A DNA stretch of 64,000 bases. It comes from Candidatus Latescibacterota bacterium (GTDB taxonomy: Bacteria > Latescibacterota > CBDEFO01). The stretch is taken from contig OZ252149.1 of assembly GCA_965248755.1 (NCBI GenBank), positions 672,001 through 736,000 on the forward strand, in the 5' to 3' direction. Positions within the stretch are counted from its first letter, which is position 1, and every line of letters starts with the position of its first letter. The position numbers were made by a program, and so were the translations under genes. The notes under the pieces are model-generated. The model was not told where the DNA came from. It ran no database searches and saw only the letters and a program-made list of their open reading frames with translations. Positions 3,814 to 58,799 of this stretch are shown piece after piece.

Positions 3814-5257
3814 ACCTACAGGGTTTATAGAATTTCAAAGGAAGCCACCTGACAGACTCTCAGTCCAGGATCGTCTTAAGGACTCAAGGGAGATCTATCT
3901 AGAGTGGTCGGACCAAGATGCTCAGAGGCAGGGCGCTCGCTGTATGGACTGTGCGGTGCCGTTTTGTCACATGGGATGCCCGTTAGGAAATTTGATCCCG
4001 GAATGGAATCACCTGGTGTACACCGAGCAATGGAGGATGGCTCTAGAAAGATTGCATGCAACGAACAACTTCCCTGAGTTTACCGGGCGTATCTGTCCGG
4101 CCCCTTGTGAGCCGGCGTGTGTGCTATCCATAAACCAAGACCCTGTCACTATTGAATACATAGAGAAGGCCATAGTGGACAAGGGTTTCAAGGAAGGGTG
4201 GATAAAACCAGAACTCCCTGCGTATCGTACTGGTAAACGGGTCGCGGTGATTGGTTCTGGCCCTGCGGGTTTGGCTGCGTCCCAGCAGTTAAATAGAGCG
4301 GGTCATCTAGTAACCCTTTTTGAGCGGAGCGAGTCTATTGGAGGATTGCTTCGCTTGGGCATACCAGACTTCAAACTGGAGAAACAACTCGTACAACGCA
4401 GGGTGGATCTCATGGCGGAAGAAGGGGTAGTATTCAAGACAGGTGTGGAGGTGGGTGTTGGAATTTCTATTGGGGAATTAAGAAAAGAGTTTGACGCCGT
4501 CTGTGTGGCTATAGGTTCATGTGAGGCTCGAGAACTTCCTGTACCTGGACGTGAACTTGAAGGTATACACCTGGCAATGGAGTACCTGACTCAGCAGAAT
4601 CGTCGTATTGCTAGCCATTCTGTGAATTCATCGGAAACTATTACTGCGGAGGGTAAGCGGGTTATTATACTGGGAGGTGGTGATACAGGAGCTGACTGCT
4701 TAGGGACGGCACATCGTCAGGGAGCAGAGGTTATATATCAGATGGAATTATTGCCTCAACCGCCCGGGGATAGGGGGCCTGAGAATCCATGGCCTCAATG
4801 GCCACAGATTTTACGTACATCTCCAGCTCACGAGGAAGGCGGGGTGCGGGATTACAATGTCCTTACGAAGAATTTCTCTGGCAAGAATGGTAGGGTCGAG
4901 GAGCTCAATGCAGTACGTGTAGAATGGGAACAACCAGACGAATCTGGTAGGCCTGTGATGCACGAAGTTCCAGGGAGTGAATTTTCCATTGGTGTAGATT
5001 TAGTCCTGCTCGCCATGGGGTTTGTACATCCAGAGCACCAAGGGCTCGTTACTGATTTGGGGGTTGAGTTGGATAGTCGAGGGAATATAGTGACTAACCC
5101 TGAAAGAGCTACCAGCGTGCCCGGGATATTTGCTGCCGGAGACTCAACCAGAGGTGCTTCATTGGTGGTTTGGGCCATCGCGGAGGGTCGCCAGGTGGCT
5201 TACGGTATAGACAAGTATCTGATGGGGCATTCCAACCTGCCTTCGGTGCCTGTTTAG
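3806..5257 (+). CDS. gltD: Glutamate synthase small subunit
   Basis: MGKPTGF start, [15 protein letters not shown] and GRICPAPCE Fe-S motifs, GSGPAG FAD motif; overlaps the gltB stop. Confidence 0.97.
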
Positions 5258-5393
5258 ATACACAACAGGGCTTGTGTGGAAACTTATCTGATTGGTGATT
5301 GGGTTCTGGTTGACCAATTATTGCTCATGACTGGATTTGGAAAGAAAGTCCTCTTTTCCTGCCGATCCAGAACCCGCCAGACCATAAGATGGC

Positions 5394-5462
5394 AAGCTTA
5401 ACCTTTTCCCCCTGATTCGGAAAGGGGAAGTTTAAGCTTTGCTAGAAGTTTAAGCTTTGCTA
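5394..5462 (+). terminator. Imperfect hairpin plus 18-bp tandem repeat downstream of gltD
   Basis: aagcttaaccttttcccc...ggggaagtttaagctt stem; gaagtttaagctttgcta occurs twice (5427-5444, 5445-5462). Confidence 0.4.
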
Positions 5463-5672
5463 AGACATAACAGTTCGCCCCAGCTTATGTATTGGTGGGG
5501 GCCAGCCACCGTGGGAGATCTGCTGGAGACAGATGCAACAGACCGCGAAGTCCCAGGGTAATTTGAGGCATTTTGAGGGCAGACACACGGGTCTGGACCT
5601 GAAGATGTGCGACCCACGACAAATTCTTGAAAATGCTGCCATTCCGAATCACAGAGCTTTTCCTCTTTTCAT

Positions 5673-5701
5673 TAGACTTTGGGCAAGAAATTTGCTAAAC
5701 T
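5673..5701 (+). promoter_or_regulatory. Candidate sigma70 promoter for the proteasome operon
   Basis: TAGACT, 17-nt spacer, TAAACT with an extended -10 TG, ~110 nt upstream of arc. Confidence 0.4.
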
Positions 5702-5809
5702 ATACCTTCGTTTAGGAAGTCTATAAGCTTAGTGACTTTTCTCTTTCTATTTTGCATCGTCGCTGTCTTCAAAGGCAATGCCTAAGATTTTGCCAAGGAT
5801 TCTTTCGTA

Positions 5810-7588
5810 ATGAACAATCCCAAAGATCCAAGACATCCAGATAGAGGCAAGGGCCAAAAGCCCTCAAGGAGTCGTATTGATAGAGAACCCGGAGAAGAAC
5901 CTGAGGACTTTTTCGCCGGTTATAACGAGGATTACGACGAAATCGCCGCCGATGCTCGGGCTTTGGCGCTAGTCGATAGAATGCTGCTGTCACTGGATGA
6001 GAAGGATAGAAGGAGGCATCTGCTCTATCAATTGAGAAGGCAGATAATTGAGGATGAGATGACGTTCCAGGAAGCGCGGCAGACAATCGTCGAGCTTGAG
6101 GGAGCCCTGGAGAAGGTGACCTCCCCCTCCAACAGAGTGGGGACATACCTGGGGTCTCCAAAGGAGGGCATAGCCTGCATCGTGGTGGGAGGCGCCGACT
6201 ACTACGCCAATGTCGACACCAGACTCGATATTTCGGAGTTGAAAGTAGGCACAAGAGTCCTTGTCAACGAGGCGTATGCAGTCGTAGGGGACCTCGGATA
6301 TAGCCCGTATGGCCCTATAGTCAAGGTTGTGGACGTTATATCTGATGACCGTCTCCAGGTAGGACAGGAACACGGACTTCAAAGTACGATATTATATAGA
6401 TCCTCAGATTTGCTCAATATTAATATAAAGGAGGGTGACCAGGTAAGAGTAGATCCCAGCTTCAGAGTCGCCTTAGAGCATATTGCCACCTCTCAATCTA
6501 AGGAATACTACCTGGAGCAAGTCCCTGAACTTCCATGGAGCAAGGTCGGGGGTCAGGACGAAGCGATAGGAGCGATAAAAGATGCTTTAGAGATGCCACT
6601 GCTCTATCCTGAACTTTTCCAAAAGTTCCAGTACGCCCCCCCCAAAGGCTTCCTTCTGCACGGCCCCCCAGGTTGCGGCAAGACCCTGATAGGAAAGGCT
6701 ACCGCCTATAACCTCGTGCGTCAGTTCAAAGAGGGTGGCGGCGATGGGGTGGAAGAATATTTCATGCACGTCAAGGGACCTGAGATCCTGAACATGTGGC
6801 TCGGTGAATCCGAGAGAATGGTAAGAGAAATATTCTCAATAGCCAGAGAAAAGCACAAAGAAGGCTATCTCCCTTTCATATTCATAGACGAGGCCGAGTC
6901 AGTACTCGGCACAAGGAGGGCTAACAGGACGCACAATATAGCCAATACGTTAGTGCCAATGTTCTGTGCGGAGATGGACGGAATAGAGTCACTTGCCGAG
7001 ATGGTGCTAATCCTTGCCACCAACAGACCAGATCTGATCGACCCTGCCATATTAAGACCCGGCAGGATAGACAGAAAGATTAAGGTCAAAAGACCCAGCC
7101 GAGAGGCGTCAAGGGAGATATTCCAAATCTACCTCACACCCGATCTTCCGATAGATCCCGAACTTTTGGAAAGATCCAATGGCGATGCGAGCGCCTCCCA
7201 AAGCTATCTGATCGATACAGCGATGGTGGAACTCTTTGCAAAAAGAGACGATACCAAACTCCTTGAGGTATCCCTGAGGAGCGGCAGGAGAGATATCCTA
7301 CACAGAGGGGATCTCGCAAGTGGAGCAATAATAGCCTCCATCGTGCAAAGAGCAAAAGAGTCCGCTATAAAAAGATCCATCGCCAACCAAAAGGACGAAG
7401 GCATATCGGAAAAGGACATCTTGACGGCAGTTGAAAGCGAATATAAAGAAAACGACATCTTCCCGCCGACGGATAATACAGAGGATTGGATGAAGTTGCT
7501 GGACTACAACCATGAGAACGTCGTCAAAGTGGTGCCTGTAAAGGATCGTGGCACAGACAAAAAGAAAATTGCAGGCAGAATCATATAG
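5810..7588 (+). CDS. arc: Proteasome-associated AAA+ ATPase (ARC/Mpa family)
   Basis: N-terminal coiled coil, OB-like region, Walker A GPPGCGKT, IKGPE-like VKGPEILNMWLGESE, Walker B FIFIDE, second-region motif LRPGRID; first gene of the Pup-like cluster. Confidence 0.95.
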   Translation: MNNPKDPRHPDRGKGQKPSRSRIDREPGEEPEDFFAGYNEDYDEIAADARALALVDRMLLSLDEKDRRRHLLYQLRRQIIEDEMTFQEARQTIVELEGALEKVTSPSNRVGTYLGSPKEGIACIVVGGADYYANVDTRLDISELKVGTRVLVNEAYAVVGDLGYSPYGPIVKVVDVISDDRLQVGQEHGLQSTILYRSSDLLNINIKEGDQVRVDPSFRVALEHIATSQSKEYYLEQVPELPWSKVGGQDEAIGAIKDALEMPLLYPELFQKFQYAPPKGFLLHGPPGCGKTLIGKATAYNLVRQFKEGGGDGVEEYFMHVKGPEILNMWLGESERMVREIFSIAREKHKEGYLPFIFIDEAESVLGTRRANRTHNIANTLVPMFCAEMDGIESLAEMVLILATNRPDLIDPAILRPGRIDRKIKVKRPSREASREIFQIYLTPDLPIDPELLERSNGDASASQSYLIDTAMVELFAKRDDTKLLEVSLRSGRRDILHRGDLASGAIIASIVQRAKESAIKRSIANQKDEGISEKDILTAVESEYKENDIFPPTDNTEDWMKLLDYNHENVVKVVPVKDRGTDKKKIAGRII

Positions 7589-7635
7589 AATCATATAAAG
7601 AGCGTAAAGAGCATACAGAAAGAGATCTACTAAGT

Positions 7636-7807
7636 GAGATTGCTGCGCATAGGCCTTGAGTCATTGCGAGAGCTGAAGCCCGGAAGCAACTTAATCTTAT
7701 GAGAAGATATAAGATTGCTTCGCCCACATGGTGGCTCTTGCCCCCGACTGAATCTATCGGGGGCTTGTTGCCTCTCCATCAAAGCGCTCACGCCGCCTGG
7801 CAATAAC
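7636..7807. repeat. REP-like GTCATTGCGAG/GAGATTGCTTCG palindromic element with an inserted 23-bp hairpin
   Basis: Similar to copies at 23329, 38233, 52841, 57137 and 61316. Hairpin cccccgactgaatctatcggggg at 7741-7763 is flanked by cttg on both sides. Confidence 0.8.
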
Positions 7808-7824
7808 GTCGCTGTGGTGATTAT

Positions 7825-9351
7825 ATGTTCAGAATGTTCGGAATAGAGACCGAGTACGGGGTCACCATCGATGGAGTTGATGAAATAGACCCTGTAAAAG
7901 AATCCATAGAGATTGTAAAAAGCTACAGACAAAACGACGTAGCAGATGTAAAATGGGATTACAGTATGGAGGACCCTCTAATAGACGTTAGGGGCTTTAG
8001 AGCCAAACAACTTCTGGAGGACCCGGACGAGAAAAAACACCAAAGGAGAGATTCAAAAAGGAATCTTTCTTTTAAGGAGATAAAAAGCGATCTTATACTG
8101 ATAAACGGGGCAAGGCTCTACAACGATCATGCGCACCCTGAGTACTCCACGCCCGAATGCACAGGGCTATTTGAACTTGTAGCCCACGATAAGGCGGGCG
8201 AGAGGATCCTTGAAGCATGCACAAAAAGGAGAAGCGAAAATCTGGACGGCAAAAGGGTAAGCCTCTACAAAAACAACACGGACTTTCACGGCCACAGCTA
8301 CGGATGCCACGACAACTACTTCATGCTTCGTAAAGTTCCGTTCGATTATTTGAAGGAACGCCTGATACCATTTTTCGTCACCCGCCAGATCTTCGCAGGA
8401 GCTGGAAAGGTGGGAACAGAATCGGAGTGCAGATCTGAACCCGGTCCTTTCCAGATAGCTCAAAGATCGGACTTTTTCATGGTAGAGACCAGCGTGGACA
8501 CTATGTACAAAAGGCCGATCATAAATACCAGAGATGAGCCACATGCCGACCCCACGAGGTTCAGGAGACTCCACGGAATCGTAGGCGACGCCAATATGTC
8601 AGAGTATTCGACAGCCCTCAAGATTGGAACAACTGTTTTGGTCCTGGACCTTATAGAGGAGGAACTAATCCAAAACGCTCCATCTTTGAGAAGACCAACC
8701 AAAGCTATTAAAGATATATCCAAAGATCAAAGCTTAAAGTGGATCGTGGAATTAGAAGATAAGAAGACTATATCGGCAGTGGACGTCCAAAGAGAGTACC
8801 TGAGCCTTGCCGAAAGACACCTGAAGGGAAGAGACCCTGAATACGATTGGGTCCTAAGAGAGTGGGAATTCGCCTTGAATACACTCGAGAGCGATCCGAT
8901 GAACCTAAAAGACAGACTCGATTGGCCCGCCAAGAAGTGGCTCCTTCAGACCTTTATACAAGAAGAGGGTCTGTCGTGGGAAGATCCGTGGGTTCAAAGT
9001 TTAGACCTTGAGTACCACAACATAGACAGACAAAGGGGGCTGTACTACGAGCTCTTAAGAGAGGGGATCATCAAGAAGCTCGTGCGGGATGAAGATGTCG
9101 AGAATTCCGTTCATTTCCCTCCTTCAAATACCAGAGCGTACTTCAGAGGCAAGTCACTGGATAAGTTCAGAGATGACATCAAGTCCATACAGTGGAACAG
9201 CATAGTATTCAGCAATGACGGAATGGAAATCTCAGTAAGTATGAACGATCTGATTGACAGTTGCTCGGTCAAGGCTTACAATAGGGCTGTGGACGACTCA
9301 ACGACGTCAACGGAGCTTTTGCACGCTATAAGGAGGCTAAAAAATGAGTAG
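7825..9351 (+). CDS. dop: Depupylase/deamidase Dop
   Basis: GIETEYG, NGARLYNDHAHPEYSTPEC, LYKNNTD..G.SYGCHDNY and RRLHGIVGDAN are Dop-type motifs. Confidence 0.93.
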   Translation: MFRMFGIETEYGVTIDGVDEIDPVKESIEIVKSYRQNDVADVKWDYSMEDPLIDVRGFRAKQLLEDPDEKKHQRRDSKRNLSFKEIKSDLILINGARLYNDHAHPEYSTPECTGLFELVAHDKAGERILEACTKRRSENLDGKRVSLYKNNTDFHGHSYGCHDNYFMLRKVPFDYLKERLIPFFVTRQIFAGAGKVGTESECRSEPGPFQIAQRSDFFMVETSVDTMYKRPIINTRDEPHADPTRFRRLHGIVGDANMSEYSTALKIGTTVLVLDLIEEELIQNAPSLRRPTKAIKDISKDQSLKWIVELEDKKTISAVDVQREYLSLAERHLKGRDPEYDWVLREWEFALNTLESDPMNLKDRLDWPAKKWLLQTFIQEEGLSWEDPWVQSLDLEYHNIDRQRGLYYELLREGIIKKLVRDEDVENSVHFPPSNTRAYFRGKSLDKFRDDIKSIQWNSIVFSNDGMEISVSMNDLIDSCSVKAYNRAVDDSTTSTELLHAIRRLKNE

Positions 9352-9544
9352 ATTTTTCTATAAAAGCACAGAACTCAGGGACAGAATACCCAGACCCGTC
9401 GATCCCTGGGATAAGAAAGAGGGCCAGGATGAAGGCCCATCGAGACCGAAGGTGGACAGACCAGATACAAGAGAGCTGCTCAAAAGGATGAGAAGGGTCG
9501 ATCCTAATCAGTCGAAGAGATACAGACAGAGAACGGGCGAGTAG
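9344..9544 (+). CDS. ubact: Prokaryotic ubiquitin-like protein UBact
   Basis: 66-aa hydrophilic protein between dop and prcB. It ends ELLKRMRRVDP...RYRQRTGE, the R[T/S]G[E/Q] C-terminus of UBact rather than the GG[Q/E] of Pup. AGGAGG RBS present. Confidence 0.92.
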   Translation: MSRFFYKSTELRDRIPRPVDPWDKKEGQDEGPSRPKVDRPDTRELLKRMRRVDPNQSKRYRQRTGE

Positions 9545-9547
9545 TAA

Positions 9548-10369
9548 ATGGATTATAAGGGCGACTTTTTAAGCCTGATAGAAGATCAAGGAAACAAATC
9601 GGAGAGCAAGGAAAGGACTCTGCGCCTTCCTTCAAGAGAGGAGGGGTTATCAGAAGGTTCTCTTCCCTTTTCGACAGAAGGGACCACGATCTTGGCTGTC
9701 AGATACAAAGATGGAGTCGTCGTAGCGGGAGATCGCAGAGCCACATCTGGCACGTCAGTGGTCTACGACCGGGCGGATAAGGTCATAGACATAGATGAGT
9801 ACTCCGTGATGGCGATCTCAGGCTCTCCCGCAATGGCTTTTGAGATAGCAAGGACCCTGGAACACTCGTTTAAGTACTACAGGAGGAGTCAACTTCAGGA
9901 AATGAGTTTAGAAGGTAAACTCAGAACTCTGTCAAGGCTGATAAGGGATAACCTCCCCTTAGCTCTACAGGGCATCGGGGCAGTCATACCGATATTTGCG
10001 GCGTTCGATCTCTATCAAGGGGAAGAGGGCGAAGGTAGGATATACTTCTACGACGGTCTTGGGGCGCAGTTCGAGTGCGCCGATTTTTCCACGTCTGGTT
10101 CAGGTTCTCTTGGGATCAGAGGTGCCCTGTATTATCTTAATAGATGGGGCGAAAAGCCCTTTGTGGATATGACCAGGGACGAATCTATAACCTTAGTTTT
10201 AAGGATGCTCGATTCGGCCTCCGAATACGACACAGCCACGGGCGGATATAACAAAAAATCCAATATCTTTCCTCTTGTTAAATCTATAAGCAAAGACGGA
10301 ATACAGGAAATATCCGCAGGAGACTTGGAGAGGACGTACAGCCAGAATGTGGAGATACAAAACAAGTAG
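9548..10369 (+). CDS. prcB: 20S proteasome beta subunit
   Basis: Propeptide followed by G|TTILAVRYKDGVVVAGDRRAT (catalytic Thr1); GSGS motif. Confidence 0.95.
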   Translation: MDYKGDFLSLIEDQGNKSESKERTLRLPSREEGLSEGSLPFSTEGTTILAVRYKDGVVVAGDRRATSGTSVVYDRADKVIDIDEYSVMAISGSPAMAFEIARTLEHSFKYYRRSQLQEMSLEGKLRTLSRLIRDNLPLALQGIGAVIPIFAAFDLYQGEEGEGRIYFYDGLGAQFECADFSTSGSGSLGIRGALYYLNRWGEKPFVDMTRDESITLVLRMLDSASEYDTATGGYNKKSNIFPLVKSISKDGIQEISAGDLERTYSQNVEIQNK

Positions 10370-10428
10370 GTAGCAAACAGTAGACAGCATACAGGGAGGG
10401 TGAGGTGCCCTGACTACTGTCTACTTTC
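10366..10428. repeat. GTAGACA heptamer-based palindromic repeat
   Basis: agtagacagcatacaggg...ccctgactactgtctact hairpin; related copies at 11237, 18456, 36141, 50467 and 51768. Confidence 0.7.
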
Positions 10429-10444
10429 TTTTGGGAGACGATGG

Positions 10445-11248
10445 ATGTTCGATGAGCCCTACAGATGGGTCGAGGCAATCTCAAATCGCAGAGAATATAT
10501 AGAAGATCAGTTGAGACTTGGCAACCCCGTCGTTGGTCTAGCTTATGACGACGGGGCTTTATTGTTGACAGTAACGACAGGACAGAGAAAACTCTTTGAG
10601 ATACACGATACGATAGCCTTTTCGGCTCTCGGGCATCCTGCTGATATCGAAAGGCTCAGGATCGTGGCTATAGACCAGGCTCACGTTGAAGGATTCACCA
10701 GGTCAGCCGATGATGTATCTTCGCACAGGCTCGTAAACTTCATAATAGCCCCCATAATTAAGCAGGCTTTCGATGAGATATTCAGGTCCCCTTATATAGC
10801 CAAGATATTCATAGCGGAACTTGAATCGATAGACAAAAACGTTCAGTTTTACTCCATAAACTACGACGGTTCTTTCCAAAGCGGAGGTGGCTTTAAGGCC
10901 CTGGCAGGCACAGAGGATGCCGAAAGCGATATGAGCAGATTCCTCTCTGATATCAGCACGGATAAGCTGAGCTTGGGCGATGCGTTGGATGGGGCGTTGA
11001 AGGCATGGGCCCTCGGGAGGATAAAGAGCCTATCCACAGATGAGTCAGCAGAAGATTCAAGCGATTCGAAAGATGTGGACATCGAAGAATTCCTCAGAAA
11101 GGAATTCCAAAACGGCTCTTTGGAAGCAGCCGTGCTGGAAAGATCAACGCAGAGAGAGAGCAAATTTAGGTTCTTATCAAAAGAGGAAGTTGAACCGTTA
11201 GAGTCCAAATACGCCCGAAGTAATCAGACAGCTAAAAGTAGAGAGTAG
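10445..11248 (+). CDS. prcA: 20S proteasome alpha subunit
   Basis: MFDEPYRWVEAI..RREYI start and RKLFEIHDTIAFSALG, actinobacterial/UBact-type alpha subunit; follows prcB. Start trimmed from 10400 because the extension is repeat DNA. Confidence 0.92.
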   Translation: MFDEPYRWVEAISNRREYIEDQLRLGNPVVGLAYDDGALLLTVTTGQRKLFEIHDTIAFSALGHPADIERLRIVAIDQAHVEGFTRSADDVSSHRLVNFIIAPIIKQAFDEIFRSPYIAKIFIAELESIDKNVQFYSINYDGSFQSGGGFKALAGTEDAESDMSRFLSDISTDKLSLGDALDGALKAWALGRIKSLSTDESAEDSSDSKDVDIEEFLRKEFQNGSLEAAVLERSTQRESKFRFLSKEEVEPLESKYARSNQTAKSRE

Positions 11249-11283
11249 ACAGGGGCAAACTGGCTTCCTGTATGCTGACTACC
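11237..11283. repeat. GTAGACA heptamer-based palindromic repeat (possible terminator or stabiliser)
   Basis: agtagagagtagacagggg...cctgtatgctgactacc immediately at the prcA stop. Confidence 0.6.
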
Positions 11284-11330
11284 GGCTAATTATCTAAGTT
11301 GTCTACGCAATTACTCTCTAATTCCATTTT

Positions 11331-11447
11331 AAATCAATGATCAAAAGAATATACGGACTTGAGACCGAATATGGATGTTTAGGCAAGGACGATATGTCCT
11401 TCGGCGCAGTTTCACGGAGTTCGCAGAGGCAGATTAATCTACGTTGA
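11331..11447 (+). pseudogene. pafA: Truncated duplicate of the pafA 5' end
   Basis: 11331-11407 matches 13280-13356 at 72/77 nt, with the first 41 nt identical. It encodes MIKRIYGLETEYGCLGKDDMSFGA, then unrelated sequence and TGA at 11445-11447. Confidence 0.9.
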
Positions 11448-11827
11448 GCAACCCGAGAACGCGAATGGCGTGGCTACGGTCTATGTTAGGGCGTCGGCGA
11501 TGATTACGCGTAGCCGAAATCTGACCGCAGCCAAGTGGCAAGAAGACGGGGACACACTTCCCCCTGACTTCGGTCGGCCACTTCGACCTCCTACGGCTTT
11601 CATCAGATTACCGTCGGATAAGCCCGCAGTTCAAGCGCTTCGAGAGTTTTTGATCCATCATCTGATTTCGTGGCTCCAACGGGTAAACCGCCAGCCAGGG
11701 GCAGGACAGCGTGCGATCACTCAATATGTGGGTCGTGCCGGCAGCGTATATATTGGATTGGCGGTTTTGGCAGCATTAAGTGGACTTTAAAAATAAAATT
11801 AACCGTTAATATTTGAGGAGAAGTATA

Positions 11828-12427
11828 ATGAATCAGAATTTCACGAAGTTAGCGTTCACTGATAGTGTTAAAAACTTTCAGGAACAATACGGCTCGCGTA
11901 AATCATACGCCCGTATGGAAACGTCCGGTGATCAGTATGTTTTAACGAACAGGGAAATTCCTTTCATAAAATCAAGGGACAGTTTTTATATGGCTACAGT
12001 TGGAGAGAACGGCTGGCCGTATGTTCAATACCGCGGTGGTCCGAAAGGATTTTTAAAAGTAATTGATAGTACAACTCTTGGCTTTGCTGACTTTCGCGGC
12101 AACATGCAATATATCAGTGCTGGAAATATGAATGCGAACCGCAAAGCATCTCTGTTTTTGATCGATTATCCTTCCAGGCAGAGATTGAAGATATGGGCAG
12201 CATCCAAAGTGGTTGAAGCGGATGAAGATCCGAAATTGTTCAAGAAGCTCATTGTTCCGGATTATGAAGCAAGAATCGAAAGAATGATAGTTTTCAACAT
12301 ACAGGCATACGATTGGAATTGCTCGCAACACATCACGCCGCGCTACACTAATGAAGAAATTGCCGGAGAAATAGGAAGATCAAATCCGGATATCTTAAAA
12401 TCTTGTTGTCCCGATGATGTTGAGTAA
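11828..12427 (+). CDS. Pyridoxamine 5'-phosphate oxidase-family (split-barrel flavin-binding) protein
   Basis: FYMATVGENGWPYVQYRGGPKGFLKV, GFADFRGNMQY and DWNCSQHITPRY; GAGGAG RBS. Confidence 0.88.
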   Translation: MNQNFTKLAFTDSVKNFQEQYGSRKSYARMETSGDQYVLTNREIPFIKSRDSFYMATVGENGWPYVQYRGGPKGFLKVIDSTTLGFADFRGNMQYISAGNMNANRKASLFLIDYPSRQRLKIWAASKVVEADEDPKLFKKLIVPDYEARIERMIVFNIQAYDWNCSQHITPRYTNEEIAGEIGRSNPDILKSCCPDDVE

Positions 12428-12547
12428 GTGCACAATTGCGAAGCACATACTTAAGGCGTTATAAAAATTAGGTAATGCAGTAGGAAAGTTGCACTTGGTA
12501 CGTTGACATTTTCTTGATCTGTAGCGATATTTGGGACATGAAAAATT

Positions 12548-12606
12548 GCCCTCGCTGCAACCGACGGTCCGCTGACGTGTCCGGCGGCTGAGCTTGGCCG
12601 GTAGGC
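12548..12606 (+). other. Degenerate attC-like (integron cassette) site
   Basis: ccctcgctgcaaccgacgg...gcggctgagcttggccggtaggc resembles the attC 3' end GCTGAGCTTnnnCGTTAGGC with a mutated core. Confidence 0.45.
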
Positions 12607-12638
12607 TTCCAGATACGAGAGCCAACAAAGGAGAGGCT

Positions 12639-13094
12639 ATGACTAATCTAAAAAGAATTTTGGCTGTATTTTTGGTTTTATTATTAACAGGATGTGCAAC
12701 AACTAGAGGAGGTTTATCTAGGAACCAAGAAATCCAGAACCTGATACAGACCTATCAGCGCAGCTTGAACGAAGGTGACCTGGGCTTAGTCAGGAGCGTC
12801 TACGCCACCGACGCGATCTTCATCGGCCAGCCTTTTCCCACAGCTACCGGCGTTGAGGAAATTGTAGCGCTCTATGCAGACTTCTTCTCGAAGGTCGACT
12901 TCGACATTCAGTTCGACGTTCAGGAAATCGAGCTGAGCAGCGACCTGGGCTTCGTTCGCACTCTGTCTCACGGCACCATCGTACCCAAGGGCCAGAATCC
13001 CGAAGGCACTGAAGGCAACCGCGAGATCTTCGTGGTGAAAAAGATCGACGGTGTGTGGAAGTTCTACCGCTACATGTTCAACGCCGAGGTTTGA
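12639..13094 (+). CDS. SnoaL/NTF2-like (DUF4440-type) lipoprotein
   Basis: Lipobox LLTG|C; YQRSLNEGDL..YATDAIF and NREIFVVKKIDGVWKFYRYMFN are typical of NTF2-like proteins. Confidence 0.8.
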   Translation: MTNLKRILAVFLVLLLTGCATTRGGLSRNQEIQNLIQTYQRSLNEGDLGLVRSVYATDAIFIGQPFPTATGVEEIVALYADFFSKVDFDIQFDVQEIELSSDLGFVRTLSHGTIVPKGQNPEGTEGNREIFVVKKIDGVWKFYRYMFNAEV

Positions 13095-13285
13095 CGGCGC
13101 GGGCCATTAAGATCGGAGCGACAGGCGGTTCGAGAAGCATTTCCTGCCCTCCGAGCCGTTGGCTTGAGCAGTCATCAGAACTGGCTCTGCCAGGAGCGCT
13201 GGTAGAGTTTTAGCGCCTAACCTGAAATAATAAGAAGAGCGCAAGCTTGTCGGAAGCCGGAGAGGTTTTGCGCTATGCAAAATCA

Positions 13286-14764
13286 ATGATCAAAAGAATA
13301 TACGGACTTGAGACCGAATACGGGTGTTTAGCCCAGGACGATATGTCCTTCAGCGCGCCCGAAAACATCTCTGTCAAAGTTAAAGATCACATCTTCTACA
13401 AAAATAACCTCGGGGTTATGGACATACACCACAGGGGATGGGATGAGCCACCCGGCAACGGCGGATTCCTCTTCAACTCAGGCAGAGTCTACATAGATAT
13501 GGGACACATAGAATATGCCACGCCAGAATGCACAGGCCTTTTCGATACTGTGACATCGGATAAAGCAGGAGAGAGAATATTACAAAGGGCACTGGCAGAT
13601 TTGGGCCTGAAGGGACAGGCTTCCTTCATCAAAAATAATGTGGACCACTTCACAGGTGCCACGTTCGGATGTCACGAAAACTACCTTCTTCGAAGAGATA
13701 TCCCCTTTTCCAAAGTTGTGATTCCCAAACTCCTCCCATTTTTCGTAACCAGACAGATATTTACGGGAGCCGGAAGAGTTGGAAACCACAACGAGATGTT
13801 CGACTATGGGATTGAGGACGGAAAAGGGATAGAATATCAAATATCTCAAAGAGCCGATTACATAGTTACTGAGATCTATCAGTGGATACAGTTCAGCCGC
13901 TCTATAGTCAACAGCAGAGACGAACCGCTTGCCGACTACACCAAATACAGAAGGCTACATCTTTTGGTCGGCGATTCCAACATGTCCGAGTACGCTATAG
14001 CTTTGAAGATAGGTACAACCGCGGTGATGCTAAGCCTGGTGGAGGGTGGACACATAACCGAGGACATAAGCCTTATGGATCCCGTGCAGGCCTTAAAGGA
14101 CATATCCCGAGATCAGCATTTCATATGGCTGGTGCGCCTTGGTGCCGGAAGAACTATATCGGCCGTAGATATTCAAAGGATATACCTGTCTCTTGCACAG
14201 AAATACCTCAAAGGCAGGGATGAAGAACTCGATTGGGTGATCAGAGAGTGGGAGTCAGTGTTAGACAGTCTGGAAAGAGACCCTATGGAACTGATAGATA
14301 GAGTCGACTGGGTGGCGAAAAGATCTCTCCTGGAGACCTTTGTAGAAGAAGAAGGTGTATCCTGGGATGATCCCTGGATCGTGAGCCTGGACCTTGAATA
14401 TCACAATATAGATCCGGAAAATGGCCTCTATTACGGACTCGAAAGAGGTGGAGGAATGCGCCGCGTAACTACGGACGAACAGATAGAAAAGGCGATCTAC
14501 AACCCTCCACAGAACACCAGAGCAAGGGGCAGAGCGCAGGCTGCAAGGAAGCTTTCAGAGAAAAAACTCCGCCGCCGATACGCTATAGATTGGGATTCTA
14601 TATACCTTGAGGGTGATAAATATTTAGATATGAAAGATCCCTTTAAGACATATCAGAATGAGGTATCCAAACTCTTTAAACTGTCCAAGGTCCCCTTCTT
14701 CCTGAAAGATGAGGACAGATCCCGATTGAAGCAGGAAAGCAAAAGAAGCAGAAGGGCGAGATAA
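13286..14764 (+). CDS. pafA: Pup/UBact-protein ligase PafA
   Basis: IYGLETEYG, FLFNSGRVYIDMGHIEYATPEC, KNNVD..GATFGCHENY, RDEPLAD and RRLHLLVGDSNM; paralogous to dop. Confidence 0.92.
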   Translation: MIKRIYGLETEYGCLAQDDMSFSAPENISVKVKDHIFYKNNLGVMDIHHRGWDEPPGNGGFLFNSGRVYIDMGHIEYATPECTGLFDTVTSDKAGERILQRALADLGLKGQASFIKNNVDHFTGATFGCHENYLLRRDIPFSKVVIPKLLPFFVTRQIFTGAGRVGNHNEMFDYGIEDGKGIEYQISQRADYIVTEIYQWIQFSRSIVNSRDEPLADYTKYRRLHLLVGDSNMSEYAIALKIGTTAVMLSLVEGGHITEDISLMDPVQALKDISRDQHFIWLVRLGAGRTISAVDIQRIYLSLAQKYLKGRDEELDWVIREWESVLDSLERDPMELIDRVDWVAKRSLLETFVEEEGVSWDDPWIVSLDLEYHNIDPENGLYYGLERGGGMRRVTTDEQIEKAIYNPPQNTRARGRAQAARKLSEKKLRRRYAIDWDSIYLEGDKYLDMKDPFKTYQNEVSKLFKLSKVPFFLKDEDRSRLKQESKRSRRAR

Positions 14765-14919
14765 TAGAGATACAATCTCGCGCGGTGGTTGTACTAATCT
14801 GCACCATATGTCTTCTGTTTAACCCTGTGGGAAATCGAGATTCTATGCAATCTACATGCTTAATCTTAAAAACCATACTTAATCTTTAAGGCTTTGAAAG
14901 ATGTCCAAGAACTTTCCCC

Positions 14920-14948
14920 TTGATCTTCTCTAATTTTCTTAGTATTAT
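14920..14948 (+). promoter_or_regulatory. Candidate sigma70 promoter for ctpA
   Basis: TTGATC, 17-nt spacer, TATTAT. Confidence 0.4.
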
Positions 14949-15064
14949 GTATATAGGAAATACCAAAGGCATCCGTCTATCTACCCTTTGACGACGAGAT
15001 TAATTTAAATGGCTTGTGATTGCAATTACCCGGAAGGGGTTCATTATTCTTGGAGTGCTCTTCG

Positions 15065-16708
15065 ATGAAAAAGAGACTCCTACTGACCGCTATAGTTTTG
15101 TCTTTTGCAATTTCGGTGTCAGCTCTGTGGATAGCTATAGAGAGGGCTCAGGCATCCAGAAGTGCCAATATTGCTCAGAGACTTGCGCTTTTGAACGAAA
15201 TTATGGTCAAGGTCCGAGATCACTACGTTGAGGAAGTAGATGTAGTTGATCTGACGGAGGGTATGATAAGAAGCCTCTTGGAAGGCCTCGATCCCCACTC
15301 CAATTATATTCCTCCGGAAGAGACCAAGAGGATGAACGAAAGATTTCAGGGCCACTTCTACGGGATAGGTATAAGCTACTATATAATGCACGACTCCTTA
15401 ACGGTCATGTTTCCTATTGAGGGAACACCGGCTTATAAGGTCGGACTCAAACCCTGGGACAAGATCGTAAAGATAGACGGAGAATCGGCCCTCGGGATAA
15501 CCAGTGATAAGGTTCAAAAAAGACTCAAAGGATCCCGAGGAACCACTGTAAACGTCTCTGTCAAGCGGGAGGGCAAAGACGAGCTTTTGGAGTTCACCAT
15601 CATAAGGAATGAAATACCGCTCAAGAGCATATCTTACTATTTTATGATTCGCCCAGGGACAGGCTATATAAAGTTAAGCAACTTTTCGAACACTACATCT
15701 GATGAATTAGATCAGGCCACAGACGATCTTAGACGGAACAGTATGGAGCGGCTCATACTCGATCTGAGATGGAACGGCGGAGGTCCTCTTGATCAGGCTG
15801 TGCAGGTGGCTGACAAGTTCCTCTGGGACGGCAAGATCGTATATACTAAGGGAAAATACCAGGCCAACAATCGCGAGTACGATGCCCACAAGGGCCAAGA
15901 TGATTGGAGACCTCCACTTATAGTTATGATCAACCACAGCAGTGCCAGTGCGTCTGAGATAGTCTCCGGCGCGATTCAGGACCAAGACAGAGGACTGGTC
16001 GTAGGGCAGTCAAGCTTCGGCAAGGGGCTTGTCCAGCATCAATTCCCCCTTGAAAAAGATGGAGGCGGCACGCTGCTGCTTACAGTGGCAAAATACTACA
16101 CTCCACTGGGACGCCTGATTCAAAGGCCATACAAGGGCAAAGACAGACAGGAGTACATTTACGAAGGGATAGATACAAACGCGGATGCCGACAGTTTAAA
16201 CCTCTCAAATAAAGATGTCTATTACACACCAGGCGGCCGCAAGGTCTACGGAGGAGGAGGCATCACACCGGATATAATACTCCAGCCAGATACTCTGACA
16301 ACCTTTGGATATAAACTGCGTGATCCTAAATATATATTTGAATTTTCTAACAGATACCTCAGAGAAAACAAAGACATAATAACCGTTGAGTTTGAGCAAT
16401 TTCTGGAAGACTCTAATATACCAGAGGATGAGCTGCTATCGCAGTTCAAGGAATTCTTGCTAGATAACAGTCCTAAGTTCAATGAGAAGGTCACTAAGGA
16501 CTTCCAAAAGGACTTCCAAAAGGCCAGAGGTTTTATAGAAAGGAGCATAAAAGCTGAGATCGCCAGGATCGCCTGGGGTCGTACAGAAAGCGGCAGAGTC
16601 TATGTAGAAGGTGATTCAGAGGTGCTGGCCGCGTTGAACCTTTTCAAAGAGGCCCTGGTTATAGTCCAAAACAAAGAAAAAGCTGAGGCCGAAAGACACG
16701 TAAGATAA
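15065..16708 (+). CDS. ctpA: S41 family carboxyl-terminal processing protease
   Basis: N-terminal signal/TM, LDPHS, PDZ domain, DLRWNGGG, SASASEIVSGA, SFGKGLVQ. Confidence 0.93.
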   Translation: MKKRLLLTAIVLSFAISVSALWIAIERAQASRSANIAQRLALLNEIMVKVRDHYVEEVDVVDLTEGMIRSLLEGLDPHSNYIPPEETKRMNERFQGHFYGIGISYYIMHDSLTVMFPIEGTPAYKVGLKPWDKIVKIDGESALGITSDKVQKRLKGSRGTTVNVSVKREGKDELLEFTIIRNEIPLKSISYYFMIRPGTGYIKLSNFSNTTSDELDQATDDLRRNSMERLILDLRWNGGGPLDQAVQVADKFLWDGKIVYTKGKYQANNREYDAHKGQDDWRPPLIVMINHSSASASEIVSGAIQDQDRGLVVGQSSFGKGLVQHQFPLEKDGGGTLLLTVAKYYTPLGRLIQRPYKGKDRQEYIYEGIDTNADADSLNLSNKDVYYTPGGRKVYGGGGITPDIILQPDTLTTFGYKLRDPKYIFEFSNRYLRENKDIITVEFEQFLEDSNIPEDELLSQFKEFLLDNSPKFNEKVTKDFQKDFQKARGFIERSIKAEIARIAWGRTESGRVYVEGDSEVLAALNLFKEALVIVQNKEKAEAERHVR

Positions 16709-25043: not shown

Positions 25044-26123
25044 TTGGCGATAGATTTTCAAAAGATACAGGAAAGCAAGAATGCCGCTGTTAGGGCCGGT
25101 CTGTGGATTCTATCCCTCCTCTACGGCATAGGAGTGAGACTCCGAACATACGCGTATAGTGCTGGCATACTAAGGAGCTCTTCCCTGTCTGATCCTCCAC
25201 TGCGGTCTGTAAAAGTAATCTGCGTGGGCAACATTGCAGCAGGAGGCACAGGCAAGACCCCGACAGTAGAATATATCGTTCGTCGCTTACGGGAGGCAGG
25301 CAAGAGAGTAACGATAATCAGCAGAGGATACAAAAGGCAGGGCAGTGATATATCAGTAGTCTCAGACGGACGTGCTGTAAAGCTGAACGCAGAAGAGGCG
25401 GGCGATGAGCCATATCTCCTTGCACAAAAGCTTCGGGACATTCCCGTCGTAGTCGGGGCTGATAGATACAAGGCAGGCGTCTTCGCAGTGGAAAACTTCT
25501 CCCCTGACTTCATAGTCCTGGACGACGGATTTCAACACTTGAGTCTGAAGAGAGACGTAAATATCGCCGTAGTAGACTCTCTTTATCCGTTGAGCAAGGA
25601 TCATCTCTTGCCCAGAGGGACCTTGAGAGAACCGCTATCCGCCCTAAATCGGGCAGACGTAGTATTCCTGACGCATACTGATTATGCAGACGACAAAGAG
25701 AAGATCAAAAGGGAGATTATGTCTATAAATCCTGCGATACCCGCAGTAGAGACGATACATCGTCCGATCTGTTTACGGTCGCTGGCTGACAATTCGAAGA
25801 TCGGGATAGATCAGCTCAAAGAGAGGAAGGTATTAGCTCTATCCGGAATAGGAAATCCGAAGTCATTCCAGATGACTCTTGAGGGCTTGGGCGCCCGGCT
25901 AACAGGTTTCCTAAACTATCCAGATCATCACTACTATACAGAAAGGGATCTTGAAGAGGTATCGCTTAAAGCGTCCGAATTAGATTCTGAATTTGTAATC
26001 ACAACCCGAAAGGACGCTGTCAAATTCCCCGAATTTAGGTCAAAGATTCCGATATACGCCCTTGAAATAGAGATACAGATCACAGTGGGAGCGGATAAGC
26101 TGGACTCGCTCCTAAAAATTTAG
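25044..26123 (+). CDS. lpxK: Tetraacyldisaccharide 4'-kinase
   Basis: VGNIAAGGTGKTP, SRGY, GDEP, LDDGFQH, LLPRGTLREP, PDHH. Confidence 0.95.
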   Translation: MAIDFQKIQESKNAAVRAGLWILSLLYGIGVRLRTYAYSAGILRSSSLSDPPLRSVKVICVGNIAAGGTGKTPTVEYIVRRLREAGKRVTIISRGYKRQGSDISVVSDGRAVKLNAEEAGDEPYLLAQKLRDIPVVVGADRYKAGVFAVENFSPDFIVLDDGFQHLSLKRDVNIAVVDSLYPLSKDHLLPRGTLREPLSALNRADVVFLTHTDYADDKEKIKREIMSINPAIPAVETIHRPICLRSLADNSKIGIDQLKERKVLALSGIGNPKSFQMTLEGLGARLTGFLNYPDHHYYTERDLEEVSLKASELDSEFVITTRKDAVKFPEFRSKIPIYALEIEIQITVGADKLDSLLKI

Positions 26124-29602: not shown

Positions 29603-30250
29603 TCAGGAGGAATTCCCCCGCTCCTTTGTCAGCTGAGCAATCTTATCTCTGATCTTGGCTGCTTCTTCGTATTCCTCATAGGCTACAGCTTCCTTGAGTT
29701 TGGCTCTCAAGGCTGAGATGTCATCATCCTGATCTGTGTCGGGCTGTGCAGGGGATGCCTGTTCTAAGAAGGCATCTACTGTTTCAGCCCCAAATACCTC
29801 CTCAATATCATCGGCTCCTAAAGGTTCATTATCAGGCCCGATTCCAAATTCAGCGCTCTCCTGCCCCGCTTCTTCCAAGACCTCCTCAGATACGTAGATT
29901 GGAGCCTCCATCCTCAGTGCCAATGCAATAGCGTCGCTCGGGCGTGAATCTATCTCCGTGGATGCCCCGTTGTGCTCCAAGGTTATCCGTGCGTAGTAAG
30001 TTCCACCCCTAAGATCGCTCACCAGAATCTTTGAAACATCGGCGCCAAAGCTATCCAGAATGAGCTTTAGAAGGTCGTGAGTTATGGGTCTGGCAGGAAG
30101 CTGTCCCTTGAGATGAGAGTAGATAGCGATCGCTTCAGGCTGACCTATGCTTATGGGGAGCACCCTTTCCCTGGTCTCATCGCTCAGCAAGACCAAAAAA
30201 CTTCTGCTCATCGAATTGAAGCTGATATTAAATACCTCCATTTTTACCAT
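29603..30250 (-). CDS. Bifunctional nuclease (DUF151) family protein with C-terminal UVR domain
   Basis: LPISIGQPEA, RPITHDL, IDSRPSDAIALALR and EEYEEAAKIRD; AGGAGGT RBS before the ATG at 30250. Confidence 0.9.
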   Translation of the reverse strand: MVKMEVFNISFNSMSRSFLVLLSDETRERVLPISIGQPEAIAIYSHLKGQLPARPITHDLLKLILDSFGADVSKILVSDLRGGTYYARITLEHNGASTEIDSRPSDAIALALRMEAPIYVSEEVLEEAGQESAEFGIGPDNEPLGADDIEEVFGAETVDAFLEQASPAQPDTDQDDDISALRAKLKEAVAYEEYEEAAKIRDKIAQLTKERGNSS

Positions 30251-30415
30251 TTGCCTACCTCCTGTCTCTAACCGCACAGGGCGCGAAATCACCCCTGGGC
30301 CTGTCCTCACGCAAAAAAGCAATGCTACTACAATTTAGACGCCCAAACTATCACACAGGATCCTTTCCCACTTTTTTTCTCCCCCAAAACCGATATTCTC
30401 CTTCACATGTCCTCT

Positions 30416-30883
30416 TTATCCCATCACTCCCCCAATAATATCACTAGATCCTAAAGGCTCATCATCAGGTTCGATTCCAAATTCAGCGCTGTCCTGCCCC
30501 GCTTCCTGTAGGACCTCCTCATAAACGTAGATTGTAGCCTCCATCCTCAGTGCCAATGAAATAGCGTCGCTCGGGCGTGAATCTATCTCTCTGGATGTCC
30601 CGTTATGCTCTAAGGTTATCCGTTCGAAGTAAGTTCCATCCTTGAGATCTCTCACCAAAATCTTTGATATCCCGGCGTCAACGCCATCCAGAATGAGCTT
30701 TAGAAGGTCATGAGTTATGGGTCTGGGAGGAAGCTGTCCCTTAAGCTGGGAGTAGATGGCGTTTGCCTCGGCCTGACCTATACTTATACGGAGCACAGTT
30801 TTCCTCATCTCATCGCTCAACAAAACCCAAAACGTTTCTCCCTTGGCATCGGTGTCTATATTAAATACCTGCATTTTCACCAT
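30416..30883 (-). CDS. Bifunctional nuclease (DUF151) paralog lacking the UVR domain
   Basis: Near-identical stretches to the downstream copy, including the RBS region; ends shortly after the DUF151 core. Confidence 0.8.
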   Translation of the reverse strand: MVKMQVFNIDTDAKGETFWVLLSDEMRKTVLRISIGQAEANAIYSQLKGQLPPRPITHDLLKLILDGVDAGISKILVRDLKDGTYFERITLEHNGTSREIDSRPSDAISLALRMEATIYVYEEVLQEAGQDSAEFGIEPDDEPLGSSDIIGGVMG

Positions 30884-31040
30884 ATGCCCACCTCCTGTCT
30901 CCAACACTTCCGATGCGCAGGTCCTATACTCCTTTACGCCCCCCTCTATCTCCTTCAGATCGTCTTTGATGATCTTCGCTTGAGTGTTCAATAAGGCTGT
31001 AAGCCATAGGCACAATATAGTCGTGCTCAAAAGATTATCT

Positions 31041-31433
31041 TTATGTTGCCCTTCTATCCTTCGGTTTATCCACCATAAATCCCACTAATCCCTTTTTTCC
31101 CAATGTCTTGAGATAAGCAAGAAGAGATACCTCAGATTCTTTCCTGTTGAGCTTGTACCTTTGTCCGAGTCCCTCGATTATGTCTTCTACAGTGTTCTGC
31201 CCGTCGGACATTTCCCACACCTGGGAACCTATCTCATCTAATTCAATCTTCTTCTCCTTGGGAACGTGAAAGATCAGGGACAACAGGCGCGCTTTCCATC
31301 CCTTTTGTCTGGGGATGGTGACTACAATATTATCCTGGGAGTCCCTTGCCCACCCCAGCAGGTCGTTCCTGATCGGTCTTGACGACAGCATCGCCTCTCG
31401 GCTGATGCGCCTCTTCCTTCTTATGACAGCCAA
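31041..31433 (-). CDS. PqqD/RRE-like protein
   Basis: IELDEIGSQVWEMSDGQNTVEDII...L..L.KKGLV is a typical PqqD-fold pattern. Confidence 0.75.
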   Translation of the reverse strand: MAVIRRKRRISREAMLSSRPIRNDLLGWARDSQDNIVVTIPRQKGWKARLLSLIFHVPKEKKIELDEIGSQVWEMSDGQNTVEDIIEGLGQRYKLNRKESEVSLLAYLKTLGKKGLVGFMVDKPKDRRAT

Positions 31434-32358
31434 TCTCTATCACCTCTACTTTTGAATCTTCCTCGTTTCTGGTGAAGTTGTGCACCACAAATATCTTATT
31501 GGAGTCCTCACAGTACCAGGTCTTTCCCTTCAAAAATAGGCGTGGTTTCCTTTCCACCCACGGCAGAGGCTTGAAGAGCCTTTTCCACCTGTTTTTGGGC
31601 ACACCCAAAATCTCAATTCCTGGATGTCCCTGAAATTGAATCTCCTTGTACGAACAGTTTAGGTCTCTCAACTTCTTCTTGAAAAAGTCACTATGCCACT
31701 CTATTGTGCTGATTCCCTTCAACAGGATGTTAGCTAAGCTTATACAGTCTATGCTGAAAGAATTTTTTTCCCTTTGAAACTCCAATTGGATGTGACCGGA
31801 TTTCAGGGAATATTCTTCTAACATCAGGTCATCAGGAACCCAGCAGGCAAGATCATAGATGCCCCAGAAATTGCGTCCTCCTTTTGAGTGATCCTCTAAA
31901 GAATATAAGATTTTGGCTGCGACCTTTTCTACATTATCATCTAAGCGCGAAAGTACCCTCAAAACCACAACCCTTCCACATGCTTTGCATTTTATGGCCA
32001 AATTGTAAGCTCGGTAATCAGCCTCCCAGATAAAACATTCGTAGTCAAAGTCTACATCCTTGAACTTTACCAGACCCACCTTTCTATTGACTTTGAAAGT
32101 GGCCCTGACCTTATTTGCCTTTTTCTCCAGATTCTCGAGGTATCTTGACACCAAACGTGAAATGGAGATCCCCTCATGCGACGGTCTCCACTCCACCTCC
32201 ACCCTTGCTATCTGGGAGTCATCGAGTCTCAAATAGCCGGAATCTTTCTTCCTGTTAGGATCAGAAGTAACGCTTCCCAGGTTCCAATCTTTCGGAACGT
32301 CGAAGGTTATGCCCTTCCAGCCGAATTTGTACCATTCTGAATAGGTTTTAGATTTCAT
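31330..32358 (-). CDS. Conserved hypothetical protein (two repeated alpha/beta halves)
   Basis: 342-aa ORF; W.G..F.VP.DW-like motif repeated as WGIYDLACWVPDDL; overlaps the PqqD-like gene by 104 nt. Confidence 0.75.
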   Translation of the reverse strand: MKSKTYSEWYKFGWKGITFDVPKDWNLGSVTSDPNRKKDSGYLRLDDSQIARVEVEWRPSHEGISISRLVSRYLENLEKKANKVRATFKVNRKVGLVKFKDVDFDYECFIWEADYRAYNLAIKCKACGRVVVLRVLSRLDDNVEKVAAKILYSLEDHSKGGRNFWGIYDLACWVPDDLMLEEYSLKSGHIQLEFQREKNSFSIDCISLANILLKGISTIEWHSDFFKKKLRDLNCSYKEIQFQGHPGIEILGVPKNRWKRLFKPLPWVERKPRLFLKGKTWYCEDSNKIFVVHNFTRNEEDSKVEVIEIGCHKKEEAHQPRGDAVVKTDQERPAGVGKGLPG

Positions 32359-58194: not shown

Positions 58195-58520
58195 GGCAAC
58201 CGCTTCGTTTTTTTTAGACGGGCTACCTCTTCGAGTATCTCCAACTGGAGCGTCAACTGCCCTACCTTGCGCTCCAACCGGCTAACCTCTCGCTCCTTCG
58301 GATCCTTGCGACCACGCCGAGACTTCAGACTCTCCTGGCCCCCTTCTAAGAAACTATCACGCCAAGCATACGCCTGCGACTGGCTAATTCCATTCTTACG
58401 ACACACCTCAGATAGATCTGCTCCTCTCAAAAGAGCCAACACAATCTCTCCCTTACGGGTCGCCGTCCAGCGCTTACCATCTTTCACTTCGGGGCTCGAC
58501 ACCTTGACCTCCCTTCTCAA
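58191..58520 (-). CDS. IS3-family OrfA (HTH)
   Basis: RWTATRKGEIVL..L.G..LSEVCRKNGIS...YAWR HTH; A8 slippery run near the 3' end. Confidence 0.88.
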   Translation of the reverse strand: MRREVKVSSPEVKDGKRWTATRKGEIVLALLRGADLSEVCRKNGISQSQAYAWRDSFLEGGQESLKSRRGRKDPKEREVSRLERKVGQLTLQLEILEEVARLKKTKRLP

Positions 58521-58799
58521 ACCCCAATTTGCGAAATATTTGTCGCTCTGTCAAGGGGAGCGGTATGACAGGCTGCACTTTAACATGTATATCGGCAATA
58601 ATATGGTGCTTCTTACGTAACGTTCCTTACCTGTCCTTAGAGCAAAAATTAGGACGTCGCTGAGTTTAAGTACAATGGGGTTGAGGGAGATGGCATCTGT
58701 GTATGGATTTTTTCTCATCGATCTTTCGAACGGTCTGCTCAAAGGGAATCGTTATCATCAGGCTCTCTCGTAGGCTATTTAGACCCTATTTTTTAGTTC

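Follow-up and report, generated by a model that had tools for sequence, protein, structure and literature searches.

Conjugation and proteasome loci built around the ubiquitin-like tag UBact were reportedly described in Gram-negative bacteria by Lehmann, Udasin, Livneh and Ciechanover in 2017 (PMID 28087277). That paper is cited in PMC5751360; UBact is mentioned in passing in PMC11354881, and no mention was found in the searched part of PMC7203096. PMC2588565 notes Pup-like loci outside Actinobacteria. No bench study of UBact was found in the open-access texts searched, in agreement with a preliminary description of the DNA analysed here, which had called the conjugation chemistry and substrates of UBact poorly characterised. 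This DNA, termed the window below, is the whole 64,000-nucleotide stretch of contig OZ252149.1 (Candidatus Latescibacterota bacterium, positions 672,001 to 736,000, forward strand). It carries six genes in the order arc-dop-ubact-prcB-prcA-pafA, which span positions 5810-14764 on the + strand and contain no internal stops. All six are intact and probably encode a Pup-like pathway of tagging and degradation; in the proposed scheme an acidic segment would read a basic tag and a tyrosine-free ARC tail would dock on the proteasome.

The preliminary description had listed arc, dop, a small tag gene, prcB, prcA and, at some distance, pafA; all of them are where it placed them, on the + strand and in intact frames:

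5810..7588, + strand: arc, ARC/Mpa-type AAA+ unfoldase of 592 amino acids (aa); Pfam OB_N, OB_C and AAA
7825..9351, + strand: dop, 508 aa, depupylase/deamidase type (TIGR03688, motifs)
9344..9544, + strand: ubact, 66-aa tag (PF20513, NF033388)
9548..10369, + strand: prcB, 20S beta subunit (PF00227, TIGR03690)
10445..11248, + strand: prcA, 20S alpha subunit of 267 aa (TIGR03691, alignment to solved PrcA)
13286..14764, + strand: pafA, loop-less Dop/PafA paralogue of 492 aa (PF03136, 468 bits)

Each gene is present in a single copy in the 4.54-Mb, one-contig genome, and the start of ubact overlaps the stop of dop by 8 nt. The products of arc, prcB, prcA and pafA match the corresponding actinobacterial models, each below the cut-off. 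Within 5200-15100 there were 0 matches to Rfam, and the promoter and terminator scans remained at chance level (13 vs 11.7 and 7 vs 9.1, respectively).

For comparison, 80 of the 341 genome loci from a PrcB scan were retained; Nitrospirota and Verrucomicrobiia predominate among their titles. One locus (L015), titled Gemmatimonas, has the match coordinates of a host-phylum genome (G044) and was not counted as another phylum. The Pup-type loci comprised (i) Nonomuraea, (ii) one unannotated record, (iii) Nitrospirota and Poribacteria genomes and (iv) 80 metagenome loci close to Nonomuraea. In the comparisons between types, UBact or Pup type was set by the best BLAST hit and five duplicate loci had been dropped; some genomes are still represented twice, and related loci are not independent.

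The window locus has the same six genes in the same order as catalogued UBact loci titled Nitrospirota, Verrucomicrobiia and Poribacteria, and this order was found in 73 of the 73 loci that contain all six genes. It is the standard of the family, and the locus is an ordinary form of the catalogued UBact system; close homologues of its PafA carry the names Latescibacterota and Handelsmanbacteria. The sole difference from the catalogued loci is a strain-level insert of 1,949 bp before pafA. The features of tail, charge and enzyme mosaic described below belong to the whole UBact family and are not peculiar to the window locus. As the operon type had already been catalogued, what is added here are the comparisons of the ARC tail and its pocket, of the tag and its enzymes, and of co-occurrence with Pup, together with the insert.

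With the actinobacterial Pup-proteasome system the UBact loci share the gene order (locus L092), the folds, a tag ending in G[EQ], the catalytic Asp and a Thr1 protease. In contrast, the UBact tag has the opposite charge, ARC lacks GQYL, Arg26 of the alpha subunit is mostly lost, and the ligase candidate differs in its alpha-loop and in having DEPLAD. Nitrospirota and Poribacteria also contain Pup-type loci (L124, L125, L165-L168), which combine arc, dop, prcBA and pafA in Gram-negative hosts; their Pup is still acidic, their ARC tails still read G[QH]YL, and they stand beside UBact in the same genomes. According to PMC2588565 and PMC3511204, they are horizontal copies. Locus L124 contains Pup-type enzymes without pup.

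The small open reading frame (ORF) at 9344-9544 ends in RYRQRTGE, as previously noted, and its proposed identity was borne out by a hidden Markov model search, in which it exceeded the cut-offs of both UBact models (PF20513 of Pfam, 77.4 vs 27.8 bits; NF033388 of NCBIfam, 82.4 vs 35 bits). An R[TS]G[EQ] C-terminus is what we take to be the definition of UBact. Among 120 related loci the tag ended in RTGE in 79 cases and in RTGQ in 41; the window tag, with RTGE, already ends in Glu, so that deamidation by Dop would not be needed here. Its N-terminal half is Pro-rich and its C-terminal 30 residues are basic (net +5). Across the last 30 residues, 61 distinct UBact sequences had a mean net charge of +4.4 (range +3 to +6), vs -7.4 (range -11 to -3) for 44 distinct Pup sequences. 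No significant similarity between the tag and Pup was detected (probability 0.2%), a search of the genome for pup (PF05639) gave 0 matches with a positive C. glutamicum control, and no solved structure of UBact was found.

By analogy with pupylation, PafA would link substrate lysines to the C-terminal Glu of UBact in an ATP-dependent reaction via a gamma-glutamyl-phosphate, Dop would remove UBact, and the tagged protein would be unfolded by ARC and degraded with the 20S core. The sequences further suggest that an acidic helical segment common to both enzymes (about 305-394 in PafA) reads the basic tag helix, and that the carboxylate of the tyrosine-free, hydrophobic ARC tail binds Lys49 of the alpha subunit. 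In cells with both tags, such differences in tag reading and docking would prevent crossover between UBact and Pup. The preliminary description went further and had the host running a full tag-and-degrade pathway. Its component list held, since all six proteins were identified and retain their main catalytic residues; that the pathway runs is inference only, as ARC has no GQYL and the ligase candidate lacks some residues of Pup ligases.

The product of dop passes TIGR03688 (498.5 vs cut-off 492.3), matches solved Dop with 406 bits vs 253 for PafA, and has the Dop-loop, DHAHPEY, the alpha-loop Thr and DEPHAD. The second paralogue keeps the catalytic Asp71 and Arg211 and a C-terminal D-W...DPF; the substrate-binding Arg equivalent to R207, a substrate contact according to PMC10465538, is thus conserved. 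It has neither the alpha-loop Thr nor the His of DEPH, DEPHAD being replaced by DEPLAD; DEPLA occurs in 73/73 loci and in 119 of the 120 PafA homologues listed. In Dop the corresponding T217 and H241 hold the tag end and the catalytic phosphate and have been tied to depupylation, and a conserved groove on both enzymes binds Pup (PMC8599861). The Dop-loop motif was found in 87/104 UBact-type Dops vs 0/73 second paralogues. A C-terminal [DN]PF is present in all 73 of the latter and in 82/84 Pup ligases, vs 1/104 and 6/26 Dops. The TTx[ST]R alpha-loop of Pup ligases (83/84) was seen in 0/73 second paralogues of the UBact type, which have a distinct W-x-Q-x-x-R alpha-loop. Because the Dop-loop, Thr and His are absent while the catalytic Asp, the R207-equivalent Arg and [DN]PF are kept, the loop-less paralogue is, by analogy, likely the ligase and the Dop-loop paralogue the remover, though the former lacks several Pup-ligase residues. 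Fold comparison did not discriminate between the two functions: the predicted PafA model (predicted local distance difference test, pLDDT, 84) had template modelling (TM) scores of 0.79-0.81 to solved Dop and PafA alike, and it is unsure in the alpha-loop region, where a helix at 197-201 is modelled with low pLDDT (about 50-57). No relative of PafA was found in viral contigs.

The phylogenetic analysis of these enzymes used 42 rows, i.e. 60 representatives of 287 sequences minus 18 dropped by hand, and no outgroup. The whole-length tree grouped both UBact enzymes against both Pup enzymes (Shimodaira-Hasegawa-like approximate likelihood-ratio test, SH-aLRT, 99), also when two long rows were removed, whereas ligase monophyly was not rejected on the whole alignment (approximately unbiased test, p-AU 0.168; 0.24). 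Site likelihoods revealed that residues 235-394 group by tag, while the remainder leans to function. Grouping by function was rejected for 235-304 (p-AU 7e-4), for 305-394 (7e-6) and, without actinobacterial rows, for 235-394 (8e-7), these segments having been picked after the site values were seen; none of 20,000 shuffles reached the value of the best stretch of 90 columns. For 1-234 and 395-end, grouping by function was best, not significantly so, and for the alignment outside 235-394 it was significant under the mixture model only (p-AU 0.046 against tag grouping).

These results bear on an alternative in which the loop-less paralogue is not a classical ligase but derives from a separate duplication of Dop and does something else, for example tag transfer or the use of a non-protein amine. 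Such a history would agree with the whole-length trees, with the His-to-Leu change of DEPLAD in 73/73 loci and the distinct alpha-loop, and with the mean identity between the two ligase groups, which was the lowest observed (34.7%). However, ligase monophyly is not rejected, the residues outside 235-394 fit function best within the limit given above, the genome has no further Dop/PafA gene, and loss of the Dop-loop combined with a change of the alpha-loop turns Dop into a ligase (PMC7947786). We consider this alternative highly improbable and retain the loop-less paralogue as the candidate UBact ligase. The whole-length trees would also point to a ligase that arose from Dop independently; this was not adopted, as the approximately unbiased test does not reject ligase monophyly and the signal lies in 235-394. 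Of recent gene conversion between dop and pafA there was no sign: identity within loci did not exceed identity between loci, and synonymous identity was 33/81 in the segment vs 33/77 in the core. As no recent conversion was seen, both an old exchange and co-evolution could account for the shared segment.

Charge differs within the segment that groups by tag. The net charge of 305-394 was -9.7 in UBact-type Dop and -8.3 in UBact-type PafA, vs -2.4 and +1.5 in the Pup-type enzymes. E/D314, W317, E356 and E371 are near-invariant in both UBact enzymes (E371 in 104/104 Dops and 73/73 PafAs), and R/K364 is typical of both Pup enzymes.

The predicted ARC protein consists of a short coiled coil, two OB domains and an AAA module, which contains the Walker A and B motifs (at 285 and 358, respectively) as well as an aromatic pore loop; it scored 442.7 bits on TIGR03689 (cut-off 504.75) and matched solved Mpa with 323 bits. 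It ends in ...AGRII and has no GQYL/HbYX (hydrophobic-Tyr-any residue) motif. An [IV][IV] tail was present in 102/103 UBact-type ARC ORFs, the exception being a frameshifted fragment (L040), and a penultimate Tyr in 0/103, vs a G[QH]YL tail in 25/25 Pup-type ARCs. The final two residues are conserved in the UBact type and the preceding ones are variable.

PrcB (TIGR03690 168.6, below 191.9) has a 45-aa propeptide, with Thr46 as Thr1, and Asp17 and Lys33 are present; mature solved beta chains align to it starting at residue 46. In PrcA (TIGR03691 78.5, below 139), Lys49 aligns to K52 of the solved mycobacterial chain and Leu25 replaces R26. According to bioRxiv 10.1101/249060, the mycobacterial Tyr contacts R26 of the alpha subunit and the carboxylate contacts K52. 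The pocket Lys is present in all alpha subunits of either type (82/82 UBact, 48/48 Pup), and Arg at position 25 in 5/82 of the UBact type vs 39/48 of the Pup type. The alpha pocket and the ARC tail show parallel changes, consistent with docking through a tail without tyrosine. The N-terminus of the UBact-type alpha subunit (10445-10480 in the window, the gate region) contains a near-invariant EPYRW motif and differs from the Pup type, which may mean a different gate. A further N-terminal nucleophile (Ntn) protease gene, of HslV size, is located elsewhere in the genome.

The same data could be read differently, namely that UBact is attached to proteins which ARC unfolds or takes apart, but that ARC does not open the 20S gate, the core being ungated or served by another activator. 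The missing penultimate Tyr (0/103), the divergent EPYRW-bearing alpha N-terminus and the non-degradative pupylation described for Corynebacterium (PMC12288473) would suit this possibility. Against it, prcB and prcA lie between ubact and pafA in 73/73 full loci, ARC is conserved in its final two residues amid variable neighbours, as expected for a docking tail, the alpha Lys49 is invariant, and the Arg was lost together with the Tyr. As to other activators, PAC2 was not found and the search for Bpa was negative, the latter without a positive control. We regard a core not opened by ARC as unlikely, and ARC-dependent degradation by the 20S core as the more natural expectation.

Several observations nevertheless weigh against the pathway as proposed. 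In the ligase candidate they are (i) scores that favour Dop over PafA (370 vs 359; 298 vs 247 bits), the score on the PafA model TIGR03686 lying below its cut-off (358.7 < 551.3), and (ii) the lack of the Val insertion and of both alpha-loop threonines of Pup ligases. As regards tag reading, the acidity of the UBact enzymes is partly a property of the whole protein (-4.9 and -4.4 vs -2.8 and +1.0 per 100 aa), position 339 shows the opposite contrast (R/K in the UBact type vs E), and the charge contrast within one genome that holds both enzyme sets (G149) is modest (-7 vs -2 and -5); that 305-394 belongs to the tag groove is, moreover, our assumption. The charge of the ARC coiled coil is not reversed (+0.85 in the UBact type vs -0.5 in the Pup type), and so gives no account of how ARC would read the tag. 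Finally, GQYL, described as required for mycobacterial gate opening in PMC8142254 and PMC12288473, is absent from ARC. A charge reversal on the coiled coil itself was considered and found unsupported, the flanking stretch being only mildly more acidic.

Co-occurrence of the two tags was analysed in 121 Nitrospirota genomes, of which 46 contained Pup and 28 UBact; 27 of the 28 UBact-positive genomes had both. Two genomes (G149 and G151) contain both enzyme sets. This co-occurrence suggests two separate pathways, which the opposite tag charges and different tails would keep apart. We tentatively propose, as a possibility that is rather evenly balanced, that UBact represents a charge-inverted, orthogonal second pupylation pathway with tyrosine-free docking, whose Dop and PafA are mosaics of a shared tag-reading part and catalytic parts that follow function. 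In 16 of 20 Nitrospirota regions around pup (L169-L184), no further gene of the pathway was detected within about 10 kb.

The 1,949-bp insert, which separates pafA from prcA, is bounded by a 77-nt direct repeat with 94% identity between the copies. Its components are as follows:

11331..11407, + strand: first copy of the 77-nt repeat, a stub of the pafA 5' end (36-codon ORF 11337-11447)
11408..13279, + strand: inserted stretch between the repeat copies, absent from the sister locus L012; no integrase seen
11828..12427, + strand: cargo gene for a pyridoxamine-phosphate-oxidase-like flavoprotein (PF01243, 39.8 bits)
12639..13094, + strand: cargo gene for a protein of the SnoaL/DUF4440 fold that carries a lipoprotein-like signal, LLLTGC (Pfam SnoaL_4, DUF4440)
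13280..13356, + strand: second repeat copy (77 nt), which supplies the start of the intact pafA

The first repeat copy occupies the position at which pafA starts in the sister genome, where prcA runs directly into pafA. Contigs of runs X5 and X6, which come from two other studies, lack exactly these 1,949 bases, so that prcA and pafA are contiguous in them. The insert is a recent, strain-level event that restored the start of pafA. An assembly artefact found no support: the insert is tiled by contigs of run X1, although this run is possibly the source sample itself. A 4-codon ORF (13275-13289) with a GGAGAGG ribosome-binding site overlaps the new pafA ATG and may, to judge from its position, couple translation to pafA. 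A non-coding stretch of 90-100 nt within the insert (~12470-12560) has three copies of 79-91% identity elsewhere, one of them just after tRNA-Phe, and no Rfam match; it is possibly the end of a mobile element.

The insert raises the question of whether the operon is decaying in the host lineage, with pafA cut off and the pathway little used. Insertion sequences (IS) and repeat elements in the host genome could be taken in the same sense, as could the sister locus L012, a natural broken version of the system, in which transposase genes (named from sequence, not by family search) interrupt arc (L012:4076-5378) and the 3' end of prcB (L012:8736-10253); these interruptions also speak against the proposed pathway. 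In the window, however, all six frames are intact and the proteins are 91-98% identical to those of the sister. The duplication restores the 5' end of pafA, the cargo is co-oriented, no terminator-like sites were called on the + strand within the insert, and the strains of the two other studies have prcA and pafA contiguous. Decay of the operon therefore appears to have very little probability.

The window locus is a complete single-system test case. As its tag is already Glu-ended and the genome contains one UBact operon and no Pup, PafA, UBact and ATP would suffice to test the chemistry assumed since 2017. Specifically, lysines should carry a TGE remnant (+287.11 Da, calculated from standard residue masses), selection of the tag should depend on acidic residues, and the docking tail should work without the Tyr used by known ATPase activators. 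The family-level features, i.e. tyrosine-free docking, reversed charge, mosaic enzymes and coexistence with Pup, make the predicted pathway easier to test. If these predictions and the charge-inverted reading hold, the rules for 20S gating would be wider, a tag-ligase pair independent of Pup would exist, Nitrospira-like cells would run two tag-and-degrade circuits without cross-talk, and PafA/UBact could provide a second proximity-tagging channel beside Pup.

The host is of the Latescibacterota type, and its character as a lipopolysaccharide (LPS) diderm is confirmed by a marker outside the operon and by further genes:

25044..26123, + strand: lpxK (TIGR00682, 240.6 over a cut-off of 92)

The preliminary description had based a diderm host on lpxK and an MsbA-like gene. 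LpxK upholds the diderm assignment, as do LpxC, LpxB and Omp85 (eight matches) elsewhere in the genome, whereas the MsbA-like gene falls below its model cut-off (541.5 vs 602). A PorV/PorQ family protein (35221-36285, - strand), above its cut-off, is in line with a host of the Fibrobacteres-Chlorobi-Bacteroidetes (FCB) group. Within the host phylum, PF03136 (Dop/PafA) was present in 115 of 140 genomes, almost throughout five families and in zero genomes of eight others; UBact was found in 11/41 genomes of a smaller sample.

One further feature lies between arc and dop and stands outside the system:

7740..7764, no strand assigned: hairpin resembling a repetitive extragenic palindrome (REP), a genome-wide repeat

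This palindrome of ~25 nt (<=3 mismatches) occurs at 7 places in the window and at 91 genome-wide. Elsewhere in the window, a 342-aa ORF at 31330-32358 (- strand) has no Pfam or NCBIfam match, and two tandem paralogues of a bifunctional nuclease (PF02577), one with a UvrB/C motif, are encoded at 29603-31030 (- strand). Opposite an IS3-family transposase gene at 57331-58620 (- strand), the + strand contains an overlapping ORF of 406 codons that is probably a shadow frame.

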